From an uncultured Pseudomonadales bacterium (GTDB lineage: Bacteria > Patescibacteriota > Microgenomatia > UBA1400 > PJMF01): a stretch of DNA of 43,657 nt. Where the stretch lies: contig CAYTIA010000001.1 of the NCBI GenBank assembly GCA_964437755.1, positions 1-43,657 of the forward strand. Reading direction: 5' to 3'. Under the pieces are notes generated by a model. That model had not been told where the DNA came from, ran no database searches, and worked only from the letters and a program-made list of their open reading frames with translations. Shown piece after piece: positions 2,357-13,770 of the stretch (position 1 is its first letter; every line of letters begins with the position of its first letter). The translations under genes were made by a program, and so were the position numbers.

Positions 2357-4024
2357 ATGTTTGCTAGCACACTCACCTGTCTTAAAAAAAATGTAGCTTT
2401 TCTTGCCGTTCTTCTGCTAACATTTTTTGTTGTTAAAAATGCATACTCTCAACAAGGAATTTTCCAGACTCATGATGGACAGATGCATCTCATCAGATCT
2501 CTGCATTTTTTTTCTGAGTTAAAAAAGGGTCAGTTTCCTGTTAGAGTCTCTTCAGACTTAGCCTATCAATACAGCTATCCAGTTTTTCAGTATTTCTATC
2601 CATTGCCATACTATACTGTTGGGATTTTTCAGCTGATTGGTTTAAGTACCACTGAAAGTTGGCGCTTTGTACTATCAATATCAACTTTTTTATCACTCTG
2701 GTTTTTTTACAAATGGATGCGCTGTTCATTTAAAAATACTCCCTCACTAATAGCAACAACAATCTATGCCCTCGTTCCTTTCAGATTTCTAACATTGTTT
2801 GTTACGGGGCAAATTGGAGGATATTTCGCACTAGTATTTGCTCCTTTAATTGGTTGGGGGTTATACAACTTATTAAAAGATCATCAAAAAAATCTGTTTG
2901 GAGGCAGTCTAATCGCACTCGGTATTGCTGGAATGATCTTGTCTCATCTACTATCCGTAATAATCTTTTTTATACCCTTAGCTAGCTATGGAGCTTATTT
3001 ATTATTTACTAATTTTTCTTGGGATAAATTTCGAAAATTAATCCTCTGGGTAATTGTTGGGCTGGGATTATCATCTTTTTATTTAATACCCTTTTTATTC
3101 GAAAAATCCACGGTTAAATTAGGACAAGAGGTAATTATTAATCATCAAGATCACTGGCCAGCTTTTAAACAGTTAATATATTCACCTTGGGGTCATGGTT
3201 ATTCGCTATCAGGCGTAACTGATGGCTTATCTTTTCAAGTAGGACTAACAATCATAACCACATGGTTTATTAGTTTTCTTGTTTTTCTAATTAATAAAAA
3301 GAAAAAGTGGTTGGCTTTGATAATGACGTTAACTTTTAGTTTCATCTTTTTTTTGATGTTAAAACAGTCTTCATTTTTGTGGGAAATTTTCTTTCCACTT
3401 CAATATTTACAGTATCCGTGGCGACTGTTGGCGTCGACCTCTCTTGTTGGAGCTTGGTTAACTGGCTGGATTCTAGATAATTTATCAAACAAAAAAAGCG
3501 CGGTTTTAGGCTTATTATTGGTAGCGCTCGCAGTAATAAATGCTAGAAACTACACCAAGCCTTGGCCTCTTGATTGGAAAACTGATGAGGACTTTATAGC
3601 TGATAAACAAAACTATTATGGATCTACCGATATTTCGTGGGAGTTAATGCCAGCAAGCGCTGTTGAAGTGCCAAAAGATCTAGGAGATGAAATTTTAAGC
3701 GATAGTCGAGAAGTGATCATTAACTATATTCAAAGACCAAACTCAGGAAAAACTAGACTGAAGTTTATAGCGATATCTGATCAACCAGCCAATCTAATAT
3801 TGCCTGTTTGGAATTATCCCTATTGGCTAATAAAGATTAATGGAGAAACTGTTAAAACAAGCAATAACATAGGAAAAATTGAGATTAAGATAAATTCAGG
3901 AGAATCGGCTGTTGAGTTGATATTAATCAAAACAAAAACTCAAAGAATTGCCGATCTCATTTCATTATCGTTTTTTGTTATTATGGGAACTATCATTTTA
4001 AAAAATACCAAAAATGGAAGTTAA
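2357..4024 (+). CDS. Multi-TM GT-C-like protein (PTPS-related/YfhO-like membrane family)
   Basis: THDGQMH, YSYPVFQYFYPLPYY and LQYPWRLL motifs with many TM segments. Confidence 0.7.
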   Translation: MFASTLTCLKKNVAFLAVLLLTFFVVKNAYSQQGIFQTHDGQMHLIRSLHFFSELKKGQFPVRVSSDLAYQYSYPVFQYFYPLPYYTVGIFQLIGLSTTESWRFVLSISTFLSLWFFYKWMRCSFKNTPSLIATTIYALVPFRFLTLFVTGQIGGYFALVFAPLIGWGLYNLLKDHQKNLFGGSLIALGIAGMILSHLLSVIIFFIPLASYGAYLLFTNFSWDKFRKLILWVIVGLGLSSFYLIPFLFEKSTVKLGQEVIINHQDHWPAFKQLIYSPWGHGYSLSGVTDGLSFQVGLTIITTWFISFLVFLINKKKKWLALIMTLTFSFIFFLMLKQSSFLWEIFFPLQYLQYPWRLLASTSLVGAWLTGWILDNLSNKKSAVLGLLLVALAVINARNYTKPWPLDWKTDEDFIADKQNYYGSTDISWELMPASAVEVPKDLGDEILSDSREVIINYIQRPNSGKTRLKFIAISDQPANLILPVWNYPYWLIKINGETVKTSNNIGKIEIKINSGESAVELILIKTKTQRIADLISLSFFVIMGTIILKNTKNGS

Positions 4025-4721
4025 TTTTAATTATAAATCTCTTACTAAAAATTCTAATGTTTCCACAAAAACAGTATCAAGAGATTACTCATTTTGGCTA
4101 TTACTAATCACTAATCTAATTACAATCTTTTTTGCAATTCGAGAAAGCTGGGAAGTAGCCGTTCTTATATGGATATATTGGGGTCAAAATATCATCATCG
4201 GTTTTTTTAACTTTTTGAAGATTTTATCGTTAAAAGAGTTTTCAACAGAGGGATTTCGTATTAATGATCAACCAGTTGATCCAACAGATGAAATCAAAAA
4301 AAATACAGCGTTCTTTTTTTTACTCCACTACGGTTTTTTTCATCTAATCTATTTTCTCTTTCTATTTTTAGATCGACCTTCTTCAAACAGTTCTTCCTCT
4401 GAAATTTATCTTTCTCAGACTGAGATTTCTTTTGTATTGCTTTCAATTTTCTTATTTTTCATCAATCATGCCTTTTCTTACCTTTTCAATAAAGATAAGG
4501 ATACAAAAAAGCAAAATATTGGTACGATTATGTTTTATCCATATGCCAGAGTTGTACCAATGCATTTATTTATATTCATTGCCTCAAAATTTCCTCAGCA
4601 AATTTTACCGATATTTTTGATACTAAAAACTTTTGCAGATTTAACGATGCACTCCATAGAGCACGGTATGGCTAGTGCAGAAGAATTGCCTACAGAACTC
4701 TCATCAACGATTGAGAAATGA
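4014..4721 (+). CDS. Membrane protein (DUF6498-like)
   Basis: YWGQNIIIG, FFLLHYGFF and PYARVVPMH motifs; several TM segments. Confidence 0.6.
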   Translation: MEVNFNYKSLTKNSNVSTKTVSRDYSFWLLLITNLITIFFAIRESWEVAVLIWIYWGQNIIIGFFNFLKILSLKEFSTEGFRINDQPVDPTDEIKKNTAFFFLLHYGFFHLIYFLFLFLDRPSSNSSSSEIYLSQTEISFVLLSIFLFFINHAFSYLFNKDKDTKKQNIGTIMFYPYARVVPMHLFIFIASKFPQQILPIFLILKTFADLTMHSIEHGMASAEELPTELSSTIEK

Positions 4722-5093
4722 TCTTCTAAACCAGCTCCAAACACGATGATACCACTTTACTTGAGGTTTCCAGTTAGATAGATCAACTAATGCTGATTCT
4801 GTAGCCTCGCTCACCTCCTCAGTAATTTCTGGAGTTGGAGTGGGTTGGGTAGTTGGTGTACTTGTTGGGATTAAGGTTGGAACCACGGTCGGTCTCACCG
4901 GAACTGAAGTTGGATTGGAGACAACTCCCGATCCATATAATCTTTCGTTTTCCTCTCCCATCTGTCGCCACTTTTCTTTGAGTTCATCTGATGGTGGCTC
5001 AGGATAAGCAACAGCACAAACAGGTTTGGCAAGCTGTCCAAACAACGCAATCATTAGTAATAAATAAAAAACACTATATGTTATTTTTTTCAT
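4704..5093 (-). CDS. Exported Pro/Thr-rich hypothetical protein
   Basis: Signal peptide, PTxTPT linker and amphipathic WYHRVWSWF C-terminus. Confidence 0.7.
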   Translation of the reverse strand: MKKITYSVFYLLLMIALFGQLAKPVCAVAYPEPPSDELKEKWRQMGEENERLYGSGVVSNPTSVPVRPTVVPTLIPTSTPTTQPTPTPEITEEVSEATESALVDLSNWKPQVKWYHRVWSWFRRSFLNR

Positions 5094-5153
5094 TTTTTAG
5101 GAACAATTATCAACGATCTGTATTTTATCATTAAATGTGATAAAATCGCTTTT

Positions 5154-5228
5154 ATGTTATTTTCAGCATCTTGGCAACTCCACCATCATTGTTATCATCA
5201 ACCCGATTTAGGAGGGCTAGGACTTTAG
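5154..5228 (+). CDS. Putative His-rich attenuator leader peptide MLFSASWQLHHHCYHQPDLGGLGL
   Basis: ATG 5154 to TAG 5228, with His codons CAC CAT CAT at 5181-5189 and CAT at 5196-5198. Extended -10 TGaTAAAAT at 5138-5146 would make it leaderless. Confidence 0.55.
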   Translation: MLFSASWQLHHHCYHQPDLGGLGL

Positions 5229-5256
5229 TATCTATATAACAATTTAACCCAAACTT

Positions 5257-5284
5257 AACCCTCCTTAAACAGAGGGTTTTTTTA
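5257..5284 (+). terminator. Intrinsic terminator of a putative attenuator upstream of the M20 peptidase
   Basis: AACCCTC-cttaaaca-GAGGGTT followed by a T run. Its 5' arm can pair alternatively with TTTAGGAGGGCTAGG (5207-5221). Confidence 0.65.
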
Positions 5285-5309
5285 TTATTAAATATCAGAG
5301 AAAGAAAAA

Positions 5310-6401
5310 ATGTTAAATCAAAAAATATTTCTAAAACAACTATCAAAATTAGTATCATTCAAAACAGTAACAGGAAACGTCAAATCTAATCAAGAAGCAC
5401 TTGAGTATGTAATAAGCCTAATTGATCCATTAGCAAAAATTAAACTAATAAGCGACCAAACTAGACAGATTCTTTTGGCAGGAAACATCGAAACAAAAAA
5501 GCCAGATTACACTTATCTGGTCCACATTGATGTAGTGCCTGGAGAAGCAACTCAGTTTACAGTTAAACAGAACGACGATCTTCTCTATGGGAGAGGTGTG
5601 AGCGATATGAAGTTCTCGATTCCAATTGGAGTTGCTCTGCTAAATGAGATAATCCAAACGAAATCAAACCTCAAATTTCAGTTAGCCATTACTACTGACG
5701 AGGAAACTGGAGGTTACGCTGGCACCAAATATTTGGTAGATGAGTATCAACTTCGACCGAGAGCGGTGATCGTTCCAGACGGTGGAAATGAGGGCTTAGT
5801 TGTCAATAAATCAAAGGGAGTCTGCCAACTAATTATAACCACACAAGGTAAAACAGCGCACGCTTCACAGCCATGGAATGGACAAAATGCTATTACGCCT
5901 CTCGTTAAGCTCGCATCAAAGCTAATTGAGAAGTATGATGATAACAATGCTAAAGAGTGCTGGGAAACAACCATGAATCTAGGACAAATCAATGGTGGCT
6001 CTGCCATCAATCAAGTCTGTCCTCAGGCAACTCTCAAGATTGATTTTAGATATCCTCAGACTGATTCTGCAGATAGTCTTATCAAGGAGGTAAAAAAAAT
6101 TGCCAAAGAGATTGGTGAAGAGTTCTCAATTGAGCTCGGCTCAATGGGCTTACCAACTTACACCGATGGTGCTTTACCAATCGTTCAAAAATTTGCCAAA
6201 AATTTAGAGAGCGAGATGGGAGTTAAGGTTGAAATTAAGGGAGAGTGTGGTGCATCTGATGCAAGGTTTTTTGCACCTTTTAACACACCAATCTTAATGA
6301 GTAAGCCAAAAGGTGGACAGATTCACTCTGATGATGAGTGGCTCAGTCTGAGCTCAACTCTAAAATTTTATCAAGCTTTGAGAAGACAGTTGGATCTTTA
6401 G
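5310..6401 (+). CDS. M20 family metallopeptidase/amidohydrolase (ArgE/DapE/PepV-like)
   Basis: HIDVVP, YGRGVSDMK, TDEETGG, GASDARF and IHSDDEW motifs. Confidence 0.9.
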   Translation: MLNQKIFLKQLSKLVSFKTVTGNVKSNQEALEYVISLIDPLAKIKLISDQTRQILLAGNIETKKPDYTYLVHIDVVPGEATQFTVKQNDDLLYGRGVSDMKFSIPIGVALLNEIIQTKSNLKFQLAITTDEETGGYAGTKYLVDEYQLRPRAVIVPDGGNEGLVVNKSKGVCQLIITTQGKTAHASQPWNGQNAITPLVKLASKLIEKYDDNNAKECWETTMNLGQINGGSAINQVCPQATLKIDFRYPQTDSADSLIKEVKKIAKEIGEEFSIELGSMGLPTYTDGALPIVQKFAKNLESEMGVKVEIKGECGASDARFFAPFNTPILMSKPKGGQIHSDDEWLSLSSTLKFYQALRRQLDL

Positions 6402-6426
6402 ATGTTAAAATAGTGTTCTTGAATAA

Positions 6427-8238
6427 TTAAGAATCTTTTTGTTCAAGAACAGGAGGTGTCGCATAGCGGTCAATTGCACACGCTTGGAAAGCGTGAGCTT
6501 CACGGCTCCGTGGGTTCGAATCCCACCACCTCCGCATAATGGAACTAGCCTGTTTTGAGTACTCAAATTTGTTTGAATTACCAATCTTTTCTGTAGGTTC
6601 TAACGAGCCCACAGTTTCTAGCATTTCTTTTTTGGCTTTTTTAACAAGGTAGAATGGTTTATGCTCATCTATCAATATTTCTTTATTCATTACCTTTAGG
6701 TTCTTACCAAGTTTTGACATAATATATGTCTTTTTCTCGATACCACCATGGTCAAACCAATACCTAGCGTAACAGGCAAATTCAAAGGTTTCTTTGGATA
6801 ATTCAATCCACTGTTTCTGTCTTTCATTAACTGTGCTGAGTTGTTCGGTGATTTCTTTTTGTTCTTGAAGCAACTCTTTTTCTTGATCATCGTACATTTG
6901 TTGTCGCTCAAGATCTAAGTTTGTGTTATCTCTAGAAATCCTTAACCTTATTAAATTTCTCAAGCTTTGTTTATTTTGATCAAATCTATCTTGAAGCTGT
7001 TTAAAAACCCTTGTATCTTGTTCTTCTTCTTGATCATTAACCTCATTCAAATGATCTATAGCCCAGTCTTTAAAAGACTCAGGGATTTCGTAGTCACAAA
7101 GAACACTATCAATTTTAGTTTCAATCTTGTCAATTTCAATGCTACCTTGTGAGCAGTTTGGATGAACTTTTTTAGTACAACTATAGTATGTGTAGTGCAA
7201 AAGTGTGGGGTTATCCATATCCACGATTTTAAGATTACACTTTGGGCATCTTGTTCTTTTTTGTGTTTGTGCAAATTTTCTTTTACAACTTGAACAGATT
7301 ATTTGATGTTTTTCTTGGCAGGTAATAGACCCATCACATTCTCCACAAGTTAAAAGCTTTTTATATGGAAAGCTTTTATTTGTCGCATGTGTTCGTTTTG
7401 GTATGCCTAACCTTTGTTGAAGCGTATTAAAATCTTTTTCAGTCAGCATTGGCTTGTGCTTTCCCATTTTTTCTCCTTCAGATCTAACCATTAGTCCATA
7501 GTAGTATTCATCAGTAATCATCCTATACCAGGCTGATTTGGACAATGGTCTATTACCTCTTTTTGCCCTCTGAATAGTTCTAAATTTCCAATCGTTATTA
7601 AGTTTATTCAACGCCTGAATTGGAGTGTGGCTTCCATCGATTATTAACCTCATTGCATCTTGAATTAATGTAAATCTATCTTTATCAATATCTATGTAAG
7701 AAGCTTTTGTAATTGGATCAGTCATATTAATATAACCAACTTTAGCCAGTCCCGGCCACCAACCTTGTTCAAATTTTTCTCTATTTCCTCTTTTAACAAC
7801 ATCAGAATTATCGTCTGAAGATTTTTTACTCATCGCAAAATCTATTTGCAACATAAACTTATCGTTTGCATTATCTATTGAGATTGAAGATGGGGTCCTG
7901 ATTTCAACTAATTTTTTTGTATCTAGCAAATGAATAATCATTCCACCATCAACAGCATTTCTTGCTAATCTATTTTTGTGCCAAACTAAGATTCCATTCG
8001 CTTCACCATTACTAATTTTAGAAATCATTTCATTGAATTGAGGTCTTCCTAGCTTATAAGCACTTCCTGATTCTTTATATACACCAACTATTTTTAAATT
8101 CTTTTCTTGAGCAAAATCTGTTAATTCTCTGTATTGAGATGATAAAGATAGAATTTGTCTATCTTCGCCCTCCGTACTTTTTCTACAGTACATTAAGTAC
8201 TTTATGCTAACTTCTTCGTGTTTTATTTGTTTTTTCAT
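6427..8238 (-). CDS. Large serine recombinase (integrase); 3' end reads through the antisense tRNA
   Basis: Catalytic YCRKST, ESGSA..GRPQF and NRLARN motifs, recombinase domain, zinc ribbon and coiled coil. The tail MRRWWDSNPRS... is antisense tRNA. Confidence 0.93.
   Translation of the reverse strand: MKKQIKHEEVSIKYLMYCRKSTEGEDRQILSLSSQYRELTDFAQEKNLKIVGVYKESGSAYKLGRPQFNEMISKISNGEANGILVWHKNRLARNAVDGGMIIHLLDTKKLVEIRTPSSISIDNANDKFMLQIDFAMSKKSSDDNSDVVKRGNREKFEQGWWPGLAKVGYINMTDPITKASYIDIDKDRFTLIQDAMRLIIDGSHTPIQALNKLNNDWKFRTIQRAKRGNRPLSKSAWYRMITDEYYYGLMVRSEGEKMGKHKPMLTEKDFNTLQQRLGIPKRTHATNKSFPYKKLLTCGECDGSITCQEKHQIICSSCKRKFAQTQKRTRCPKCNLKIVDMDNPTLLHYTYYSCTKKVHPNCSQGSIEIDKIETKIDSVLCDYEIPESFKDWAIDHLNEVNDQEEEQDTRVFKQLQDRFDQNKQSLRNLIRLRISRDNTNLDLERQQMYDDQEKELLQEQKEITEQLSTVNERQKQWIELSKETFEFACYARYWFDHGGIEKKTYIMSKLGKNLKVMNKEILIDEHKPFYLVKKAKKEMLETVGSLEPTEKIGNSNKFEYSKQASSIMRRWWDSNPRSREAHAFQACAIDRYATPPVLEQKDS
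6452..6534 (+). tRNA. trnS: tRNA-Ser(GGA); CCA not encoded
   Basis: Acceptor GGAGGTG/CACCTCC plus discriminator G, anticodon arm CACGC-TT-GGA-AA-GCGTG, long variable arm GAGC-TTCACG-GCTC, T arm GTGGG-TTCGAAT-CCCAC. Confidence 0.97.
6527..6536 (+). repeat. attL core CACCTCCGCA (tRNA 3' end)
   Basis: Identical 10-mer at 21664-21673. Confidence 0.75.
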
Positions 8239-13230: not shown

Positions 13231-13770
13231 ATGAAAATTACATACAAACACACACTCCCTGCTGATAAGCTATCTAAGTTTGATATCCATAGAATGGGAC
13301 CAGAAGCCATCAGTCTTTTAGTAAAGTTAGATCACCTGAAAATAGTTATGGCATCTCCTCATGAAAAAAAGGTGGATTTAGTCGTAACCAATACAGATTC
13401 AAAACAAATATATAAAATTAAAGTTCTTACTACCAAAAATCCATCTTCAAATCAAGGAGTTGGAACTGGTTTAAGTTGGATGGTCGGTGAAATAGATAAA
13501 AAAACAATAAGTGACGACATGTTTTTTTGTTTTGTTCATCTAGTAATTAATAAAGATGAATTAGAATTTAGATTTTTTATTGTGCCAAGTAAAGATGTTT
13601 CTGAGTATGTTGAAAATGCATTTAATTTCTGGCTCAATGAGGTAAACACTAGAGATGAGAAAAACACTGTAAAGAAATTTTTACTCGGAGAAAAAGGCAA
13701 AGAATATCCCTCTGGGTTTAAAACACTCATACAAGAAGACTATGAAGATAACTGGGATCTATTAAAGTAA
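13231..13770 (+). CDS. PD-(D/E)XK restriction-endonuclease-fold-like protein with degenerate active site
   Basis: VDLVV...KIKVLT, FFCFVHL, FRFFIVPSKDV and YEDNWDLL pattern. Confidence 0.5.
   Translation: MKITYKHTLPADKLSKFDIHRMGPEAISLLVKLDHLKIVMASPHEKKVDLVVTNTDSKQIYKIKVLTTKNPSSNQGVGTGLSWMVGEIDKKTISDDMFFCFVHLVINKDELEFRFFIVPSKDVSEYVENAFNFWLNEVNTRDEKNTVKKFLLGEKGKEYPSGFKTLIQEDYEDNWDLLK

Follow-up and report, generated by a model that had tools for sequence, protein, structure and literature searches.

A candidate histidine-sensing leader-peptide attenuator upstream of an M20 hydrolase gene in a Patescibacteriota genome

Results

Organization of the leader

The window analyzed here, a stretch of 43,657 nucleotides (nt) of contig CAYTIA010000001.1 (assembly GCA_964437755.1), belongs to an uncultured bacterium of the phylum Patescibacteriota, order UBA1400. 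Positions 5310-6401 of its plus strand encode a 363-residue M20 metallo-hydrolase of the ArgE/DapE type, which is separated by an intergenic gap of 216 nt from a minus-strand gene at 4704-5093. The gap contains, on the plus strand, the parts of what is very probably a ribosome-mediated transcription attenuator (5138-5309) of the his, trp, and phe leader-peptide kind, placed before the M20 gene.

A TG-extended -10 element (TGaTAAAAT, 5138-5146) ends 7 nt 5' of the ATG of an upstream open reading frame (uORF, 5154-5228), which consists of 24 codons and the stop codon TAG (5226-5228). An earlier note on this DNA, made without database searches, had described this uORF and its place behind an extended -10 box, and both are present as described. 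The leader peptide has four His codons, three of them consecutive (codons 10-12, 5181-5189) and the fourth (codon 15, 5196-5198) set apart by Cys and Tyr codons. The intrinsic terminator that the note had seen ahead of the peptidase gene was recovered by a terminator scan at 5257-5283. Its stem pairs 5257-5263 with 5272-5278 through seven base pairs, four of which are G-C, and is capped by an 8-nt loop and followed by a T run reaching 5283.

Three segments of the leader are predicted to pair in alternative ways. Region 1 (5169-5181), delimited from minimum-energy folds, is the partner of region 2 on the ribosome-free leader. Region 2 (5210-5222) is composed of a purine-rich AGGAGGG block and 4-5 additional nt, lies in the last codons of the uORF, and forms the 5' strand of the antiterminator. 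Region 3 (5254-5265) forms the 3' strand of the antiterminator and overlaps the 5' arm of the terminator. The full-length minimum-energy fold (-27.8 kcal/mol, z -2.48, with 3 of 200 shuffles as good) combines the terminator with a 5' helix, in which 5169-5175 and 5178-5181 pair with 5216-5222 and 5211-5214. After the 3' arm of the terminator was withheld, ViennaRNA predicted pairing of 5210-5216 and 5218-5221 with 5259-5265 and 5254-5257, in agreement with the antiterminator proposed earlier.

Two additional reading frames touch the leader. An Ile/Val-rich frame, mentioned in the earlier note as an alternative, could start with GTG and extend from 5137 to 5211; it begins inside the -10 element and differs from the frame conserved in orthologues, and was rejected. 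A minus-strand open reading frame (ORF) of 68 codons (5152-5358) overlaps the leader and the start of the M20 gene.

Conservation of the leader in M20 orthologues

The earlier note had named missing conservation in orthologues as grounds for refutation. The comparison came out in favor of the proposal, as M20 genes in several families of the order are preceded by the uORF with its His codons, the antiterminator, and the terminator. The M20 gene is patchily distributed and was detected in 35 of 286 genomes of the order at E-values up to 1e-60. We examined 31 M20 loci, comprising the window and 30 loci fetched from 36 match rows; rows without a locus were left out. The same leader is located directly upstream of the M20 gene in 12 loci, one of which is interrupted by an assembly gap. 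One more leader precedes a two-gene phosphatase-M20 operon (80.3 bits), and another is followed by a tRNA-Tyr gene and then by the M20 gene. In eight loci the M20 gene overlaps the stop codon of hisS by 4-8 nt and has no leader nearby. The hisS identity was established by Pfam in three of these loci, and the other five were tied to them by blastp. A leader with His codons precedes hisS in six of the eight operons; in another no such leader is seen, and the last is truncated where the locus ends. A leader of this kind therefore governs 20 of the 31 M20 loci, 14 of them as an M20-proximal leader and six through the hisS operon, and histidine is tied to the M20 gene in two independent ways. The remaining M20 genes follow a gene of the Trp_repressor family (four loci; three confirmed by Pfam, L004, L046, and L055, and one by likeness only), pheT (two loci; L052 confirmed, one by likeness), or other genes (two loci); one locus is unreadable because of a run of N.

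Homologous uORFs were located in the upstream regions by rule-based finding. Of the 14 M20-proximal leaders, nine have His codons at the corresponding position, as do all six leaders of hisS-M20 operons, and the counts are the same for leaders with at least two His codons. Among 8735 random short ORFs of this genome, which served as controls, 8.0% contain at least two His codons and 0.08% contain a run of at least three. The His codons keep the frame of the ATG despite insertions and deletions of whole codons. All 11 full leaders have a GGGAGG-like block at a distance of about 49-57 nt from the ATG; its reading frame differs among them, or it lies past the stop codon. The in-frame His codons and the frame-independent purine block point to selection at the level of codons in the upstream part of the uORF and at the level of RNA in region 2.

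The spacing of the promoter elements is conserved as well. All ten M20 leaders that were scored have a TAnnnT hexamer ending 6-8 nt upstream of the ATG, and six of the ten have the TG extension. The background frequency of such a hexamer at this distance is 6.8%, or 0.58% with the TG extension, as calculated from 31631 ATGs of the genome. This spacing indicates a leaderless uORF, and the transcript is predicted to begin at the uORF AUG or next to it. A Shine-Dalgarno motif was not found 5' of the ATG of the window uORF. In M20 leaders, the terminator lies 88-103 nt from the ATG.

The uORF could instead encode a small functional or arrest peptide that has its own terminator and is unrelated to amino-acid supply. 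At the peptide level, a short aromatic-rich motif behind the His codons is conserved, which would fit such a function. We give this explanation hardly any credence, since the C-terminal halves of the leader peptides are not conserved as peptides, and their lengths range from 13 to 24 residues in the 14 M20-proximal leaders (15-24 in the 12 direct ones), with two of them ending before region 2. Furthermore, the terminator of direct leaders always lies 20-34 nt before the start of an M20 gene on the same strand, and the family-wide match between codon runs and downstream genes, described below, favors the sensing of charged tRNA.

Mutually exclusive folds and proposed mechanism

RNAalifold, applied to a MAFFT alignment, recovered only the terminator, as a consensus helix in 11 of 11 leaders, because the spacers between the elements fail to align. 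We therefore tested the alternative helices in each of the 11 complete leaders separately. Masking of the first 33-48 nt, the part that a ribosome stalled on the His codons would occupy, resulted in the formation of the antiterminator between regions 2 and 3 in all 11, with energies of -12.5 to -24.5 kcal/mol. The terminator alone is weaker, with energies of -9.4 to -14.6 kcal/mol. When the mask extended through the stop codon plus 12 nt, only the terminator formed, again in all 11 leaders. These folds bear out the idea that a stalled ribosome leaves the antiterminator strand free and that a ribosome at the stop codon covers it. The duplex of regions 2 and 3 was compared with dinucleotide shuffles and has a mean z of -3.45 over the 11 leaders; in five of them, none of 300 shuffles was as good. 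The sequence of the outer helix of this duplex varies among the leaders, and its complementarity is kept. Pairing of region 1 with region 2 occurs in the minimum-energy folds of 9 of the 11 leaders, and in the window the corresponding duplex has a z of -2.02, with 14 of 300 shuffles as good.

We also built a leave-one-out covariance model, R2, from 11 other leaders, with the window excluded. Its top match in the window is a full-length one to 5154-5283 (34.0 bits, E-value 2.5e-7), and the next match scores 15.6 bits. Weaker matches at 13410, 15592, 37611, and 38693 lack the layout of uORF, terminator, and gene, and were discarded. The window helices on their own are only modestly above chance, and it is their conservation in orthologues that is decisive.

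The leader thus combines a short uORF with codons cognate to the presumed function (four His codons, supported by the hisS-M20 operons and by a four-His leader before the hisS gene of the same genome), an intrinsic terminator between the uORF and the gene, and an antiterminator that excludes the terminator and is free, in all 11 predicted folds, only when a ribosome stalls upstream. We propose that transcription would start on the AUG at 5154 or no more than one base away, and that the 24-codon leader would be read as a leaderless mRNA. With ample charged tRNA-His, the ribosome would reach the stop codon at 5226-5228 and cover region 2. Region 3 would then pair with region 4, the terminator would form, and transcription would end before the gene. 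With scarce His-tRNA, the ribosome would stall on the His codons (5181-5198), with its footprint ending before 5210. Region 2 would remain available for the emerging region 3, no terminator would form, and the polymerase would enter the M20 gene.

Sister leaders in the genome and the order

Another model, R1, matched three further sites in the same genome. The corresponding leaders contain five Thr codons in a row before thrS (threonyl-tRNA synthetase, ThrRS), four His codons in a row before hisS (histidyl-tRNA synthetase, HisRS), and four Phe codons in a row before pheS (PheRS alpha). The three leaders fold by the same logic as that of the M20 gene. A rule-based scan of the genome found such runs only in the M20, thrS, and hisS leaders, and the leaders of hisS and the M20 gene are the only His leaders in this genome. 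The link to histidine drawn in the earlier note is strengthened by this four-His hisS leader and by the hisS-M20 overlap in eight loci.

Matches to the model were obtained in 126 of 151 genomes of the order at E-values up to 0.01, and in about 64 at 1e-4. A phylum-wide sample gave matches in seven genomes outside the order at E-values up to 1e-4, none of which is convincing: three are full-length and lack a codon run or a clear gene, and four are partial and correspond to the terminator. We take the leader family, as detected with this model, to be limited to the order.

We examined 93 model matches, made up of 29 loci, 60 fetched regions, and four sites of the window's own genome. An ATG is present at the model start in 83 of them, and 27 of these 83 uORFs contain a run of at least three identical codons, as compared to 11.7% of controls. 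His runs of at least three codons are present in 8 of the 83, as compared to 0.08% of the 8735 control ORFs. Leaders of the PheS cluster are rich in Phe codons in seven of seven cases, with a run of three or four in six; two members of the cluster were confirmed by Pfam and the rest were assigned by blastp. In other genomes, a leader with two Trp codons precedes a synthetase of the Trp/Tyr type, and His leaders precede HisRS genes. An independent, unbiased survey covered 29 hisS loci sampled evenly across the order and found a terminator and a uORF with at least three His codons in six of them. A five-His leader stands before a HisG-family gene (L128, 648-1361, minus strand), which indicates that some members of the order keep at least part of histidine synthesis under similar control. 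Wherever the amino-acid identity of the downstream gene is clear, the codon run fits it. Of 20 downstream proteins submitted to Pfam, 11 have no family, and their leaders were unscorable for the codon-gene match. The genes behind Ser-run and Cys-run leaders have no evident cognate link and are of the Asp/Glu racemase family or of PIG-L, HypF-like, and ParB_N types.

Several of these loci have additional features. Leaders with runs of three Cys codons are located before proteins with a ParB_N domain, of the PIG-L deacetylase family, and of HypF-like type (L093, L108, and L133). In nine loci (L077, L078, L079, L081, L083, L096, L117, L139, and L143), a leader with abundant His, Trp, and Tyr codons stands before the gene for a class I/II aminotransferase, which may be similar to histidinol-phosphate or aromatic aminotransferases; a tblastn search did not find this aminotransferase in the window's genome. 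PheRS alpha behind a Phe-run leader is fused to an N-terminal piece matching the end of the alanyl-tRNA synthetase family in L089 (1642-3108) and L091. The HisRS of the window's genome (G000, contig C5, about 61716-63170, minus strand; L061) contains a 232-residue N-terminal part of no Pfam family, which precedes the synthetase core and is missing from the majority of HisRS genes across the order. In a single family of the order, the M20 gene is adjoined by an additional leader with His codons (L050 1233-2291, L055 2592-3645, L046, L051, L005, and L047). The gene behind it encodes a protein of about 295 residues that has no Pfam family, and a tblastn search of the window's genome did not detect this protein.

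Doubts about the histidine signal and about translation of the uORF

Several observations weigh against the histidine-sensing attenuator. The duplex of regions 2 and 3 in the window itself has a z of -1.69, with 19 of 300 shuffles as good. The helix between regions 1 and 2 is the weakest element, with a mean z of -1.07 over the 11 leaders, and in several of them it is no better than shuffles. The M20 gene was not found in three genomes of the same genus (72-95% complete), and thus the nearest comparison is at only about 55% protein identity. The four His codons of the window leader are fewer than the seven of the Escherichia coli his leader. In five of the 14 M20-proximal leaders there is just one His codon, which in two of the five is codon 2, and therefore His sensing is not universal for the M20 gene. 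The Trp, Tyr, and Phe codons that follow the His codons are conserved about equally well. Finally, a sigma-70-like sequence (10 of 12 positions, with TG) is located inside the uORF at 5171-5198, and if this internal promoter were in use, the uORF would be bypassed.

The single-His leaders and the aromatic codons could mean that the same attenuator responds to a broader signal, a shortage of His, Trp, Tyr, or Phe, and that the M20 enzyme is a broad deacylase or peptidase supplying these amino acids. A Trp codon followed by Tyr or Phe codons is kept behind the His codons in most M20 leaders, and one leader drives tRNA-Tyr together with the M20 gene. M20 genes in leaderless contexts follow the Trp_repressor-family gene or pheT, as listed above, and the nine aminotransferase leaders have a similar His, Trp, and Tyr composition. 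We nevertheless regard the broader signal as unlikely. The leaders of hisS, which encodes a His-only enzyme, carry the same aromatic codons, and these need not be sensors. The aromatic codons are part of the partner strand of region 2, and His dominates the window leader with four codons, as compared to one each for Trp, Tyr, and Phe. Because the hisS leaders show them too, we take the aromatic codons to be mostly structural, as part of region 1; they may also convey other signals.

The promoter match inside the uORF and the missing Shine-Dalgarno motif are what would be expected if the uORF were untranslated. The terminator would then be leaky and constitutive, a protein or small ligand would operate the switch, or the internal promoter would drive the gene. 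This appears very improbable to us, given the ATG placed 6-8 nt past the -10 hexamer in ten of ten leaders, the conservation of His codons in frame, and the agreement between codon runs of sister leaders and the genes they regulate. The internal promoter match does not occur at the same place in the printed upstream regions of orthologues, which were compared by eye, and such matches are common, with six found in 3 kb and 8.4 expected. An Rfam search of 4900-6700 with E-values up to 10 gave no match to a riboswitch or T-box, and His_leader was not among its matches. Two leader models matched below their thresholds (Trp_leader, 22.6 bits, threshold 41; Phe_leader, 19.2 bits, threshold 55); these matches were driven by the terminator, and the remaining match of the scan is a tRNA.

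The M20 enzyme and histidine supply

The M20 product matches the catalytic and dimerization domains of the family (Pfam PF01546, 83.2 bits; PF07687, 81.6 bits), and the metal-binding and catalytic positions are present, which places it in peptidase family M20. Residues H72, D74, D99, E131, E132, D157, and H339 are invariant across 12 M20 orthologues; their roles are presumed from the ligands of DapE and from alignment with a structural relative. The best NCBIfam models are DapE and ArgE, and all score under their cut-offs (149.7 bits vs 381; subfamily 146.5 vs 217.6). The PepV model scores 62.8 as compared to a cut-off of 435, and PepD is not among the 25 NCBIfam matches listed for the protein. 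The nearest relative in the Protein Data Bank is an uncharacterized M20 protein, followed by DapE and ArgE, and a protein-cluster search gave generic M20 clusters only. A distant Staphylococcus M20 match (29% identity) from a wider contig search was not used. The protein is an ArgE/DapE-like hydrolase of no named equivalog, and not a recognized Xaa-His dipeptidase. The assignment to M20 peptidases made in the earlier note thus holds, and its hint at Xaa-His dipeptidases is not supported.

The genome is 1.03 Mb long and 97.8% complete. Neither the hisD, hisA/F, and hisG families (PF00815, PF00977, and PF01634) nor ribosomal protein L30 were found in it. This fits the auxotrophic CPR (candidate phyla radiation) cell supposed in the earlier note, and judging from the gene content, the cell is apparently unable to make histidine. 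In the simplest reading, histidine shortage would raise both the enzyme that charges tRNA-His and a hydrolase that frees histidine from imported substrates. We infer that the M20 enzyme would supply a cell incapable of histidine synthesis by setting histidine free from peptides or from acylated amino acids.

Genomic neighborhood

The genes upstream of the leader encode a PMT_2-type glycosyltransferase (2357-4024, plus strand) and a DUF6498 membrane protein (4014-4721, plus strand). The divergent gene at 4704-5093 encodes a 129-residue protein of no family, the start of which resembles a signal peptide by eye. On the other side of the M20 gene, a 603-residue protein with a Resolvase N-terminal domain, of the large serine recombinase type, is encoded at 6427-8238 (minus strand). 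Its gene overlaps the 3' side of tRNA-Ser(GGA) (6452-6535, plus strand), and the next minus-strand gene past it has a weak match to DUF5906. From this arrangement, it looks as if an integrated mobile element starts just to the right of the M20 gene.

Discussion

We lean towards the view that the order, as a group of small-genome bacteria lacking L30, runs much of its amino-acid economy through one family of mostly leaderless leader-peptide attenuators, whose targets would include at least four synthetases (thrS, hisS, pheS, and the Trp/Tyr type), hisG, and many genes without a known family, and that the M20 enzyme is a histidine-salvage hydrolase. If so, the codon run labels the amino acid that each downstream gene serves, and unannotated families gain a first functional assignment, among them the protein of about 295 residues beside the M20 gene and the genes behind Cys-run leaders. 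Codon runs are a rare clue to the function of unannotated genes that can be read from sequence alone in organisms that are hard to grow, and they turn the substrate of the M20 enzyme into a directly testable question.

Leader-peptide attenuation is textbook knowledge for biosynthetic operons of Proteobacteria. A literature search over the main texts of papers found none on such attenuation in organisms of the CPR/Patescibacteria type. The textbook cases manage synthesis, whereas the sensor proposed here would manage scavenging and tRNA charging. The apparent leaderless start would couple the first transcribed codon to the ribosome, a compact arrangement for tiny genomes.

The closest parallel is the enteric hisL attenuator, which also has consecutive His codons in a short uORF and mutually exclusive antiterminator and terminator hairpins. 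In hisL, as in the mechanism proposed here, the position of the stop codon lets a finishing ribosome cover the antiterminator strand, and read-through follows a shortage of charged tRNA-His. Unlike hisL and the Rfam His_leader, to which it has no match in sequence or structure, the window leader contains a uORF that has three to four His codons as compared to seven, appears to be leaderless, and lacks a Shine-Dalgarno motif. It stands before one hydrolase gene, in a genome where no histidine synthesis was detected, and not before a biosynthetic operon.

The pheST operon of E. coli is controlled by an attenuator with the Phe-rich leader peptide pheM, and is to our knowledge the only classic example of a synthetase attenuator in that species. 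The pheS, thrS, and hisS leaders described here similarly place a leader-peptide attenuator before an aminoacyl-tRNA synthetase gene. They differ from pheST in that one leader architecture is common to several synthetase and non-synthetase genes throughout the order.

The window element also resembles T-box riboswitches, in which the charging of tRNA sets the expression of synthetase and amino-acid supply genes through a choice between terminator and antiterminator. It is, however, only about 130 nt long and contains a uORF predicted to be translated, whereas T-boxes bind tRNA through stem I, and no T-box match was obtained.

Two systems from other phyla are comparable. In Bacillus, His leader peptides have been predicted before a hisS paralogue and hisZ (PMC2965389). 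These leaders share with the window leader the combination of a uORF with His codons and a premature terminator before a gene of the HisRS family, outside the Proteobacteria. They belong to a different phylum, and in the accessible text of that study neither a leaderless start nor a peptidase target is mentioned for them; we claim no sequence relation between the two. In mycobacteria, leaderless short ORFs with polycysteine runs act on translation (10.1101/834739). According to that report, they are sensory uORFs that are likewise leaderless and contain a run of a single codon, and several loci have one amino-acid signal in common, an idea termed the 'ribulon'. The leaders described here differ from them in having an intrinsic terminator with a T run, which points to control at the level of transcription.

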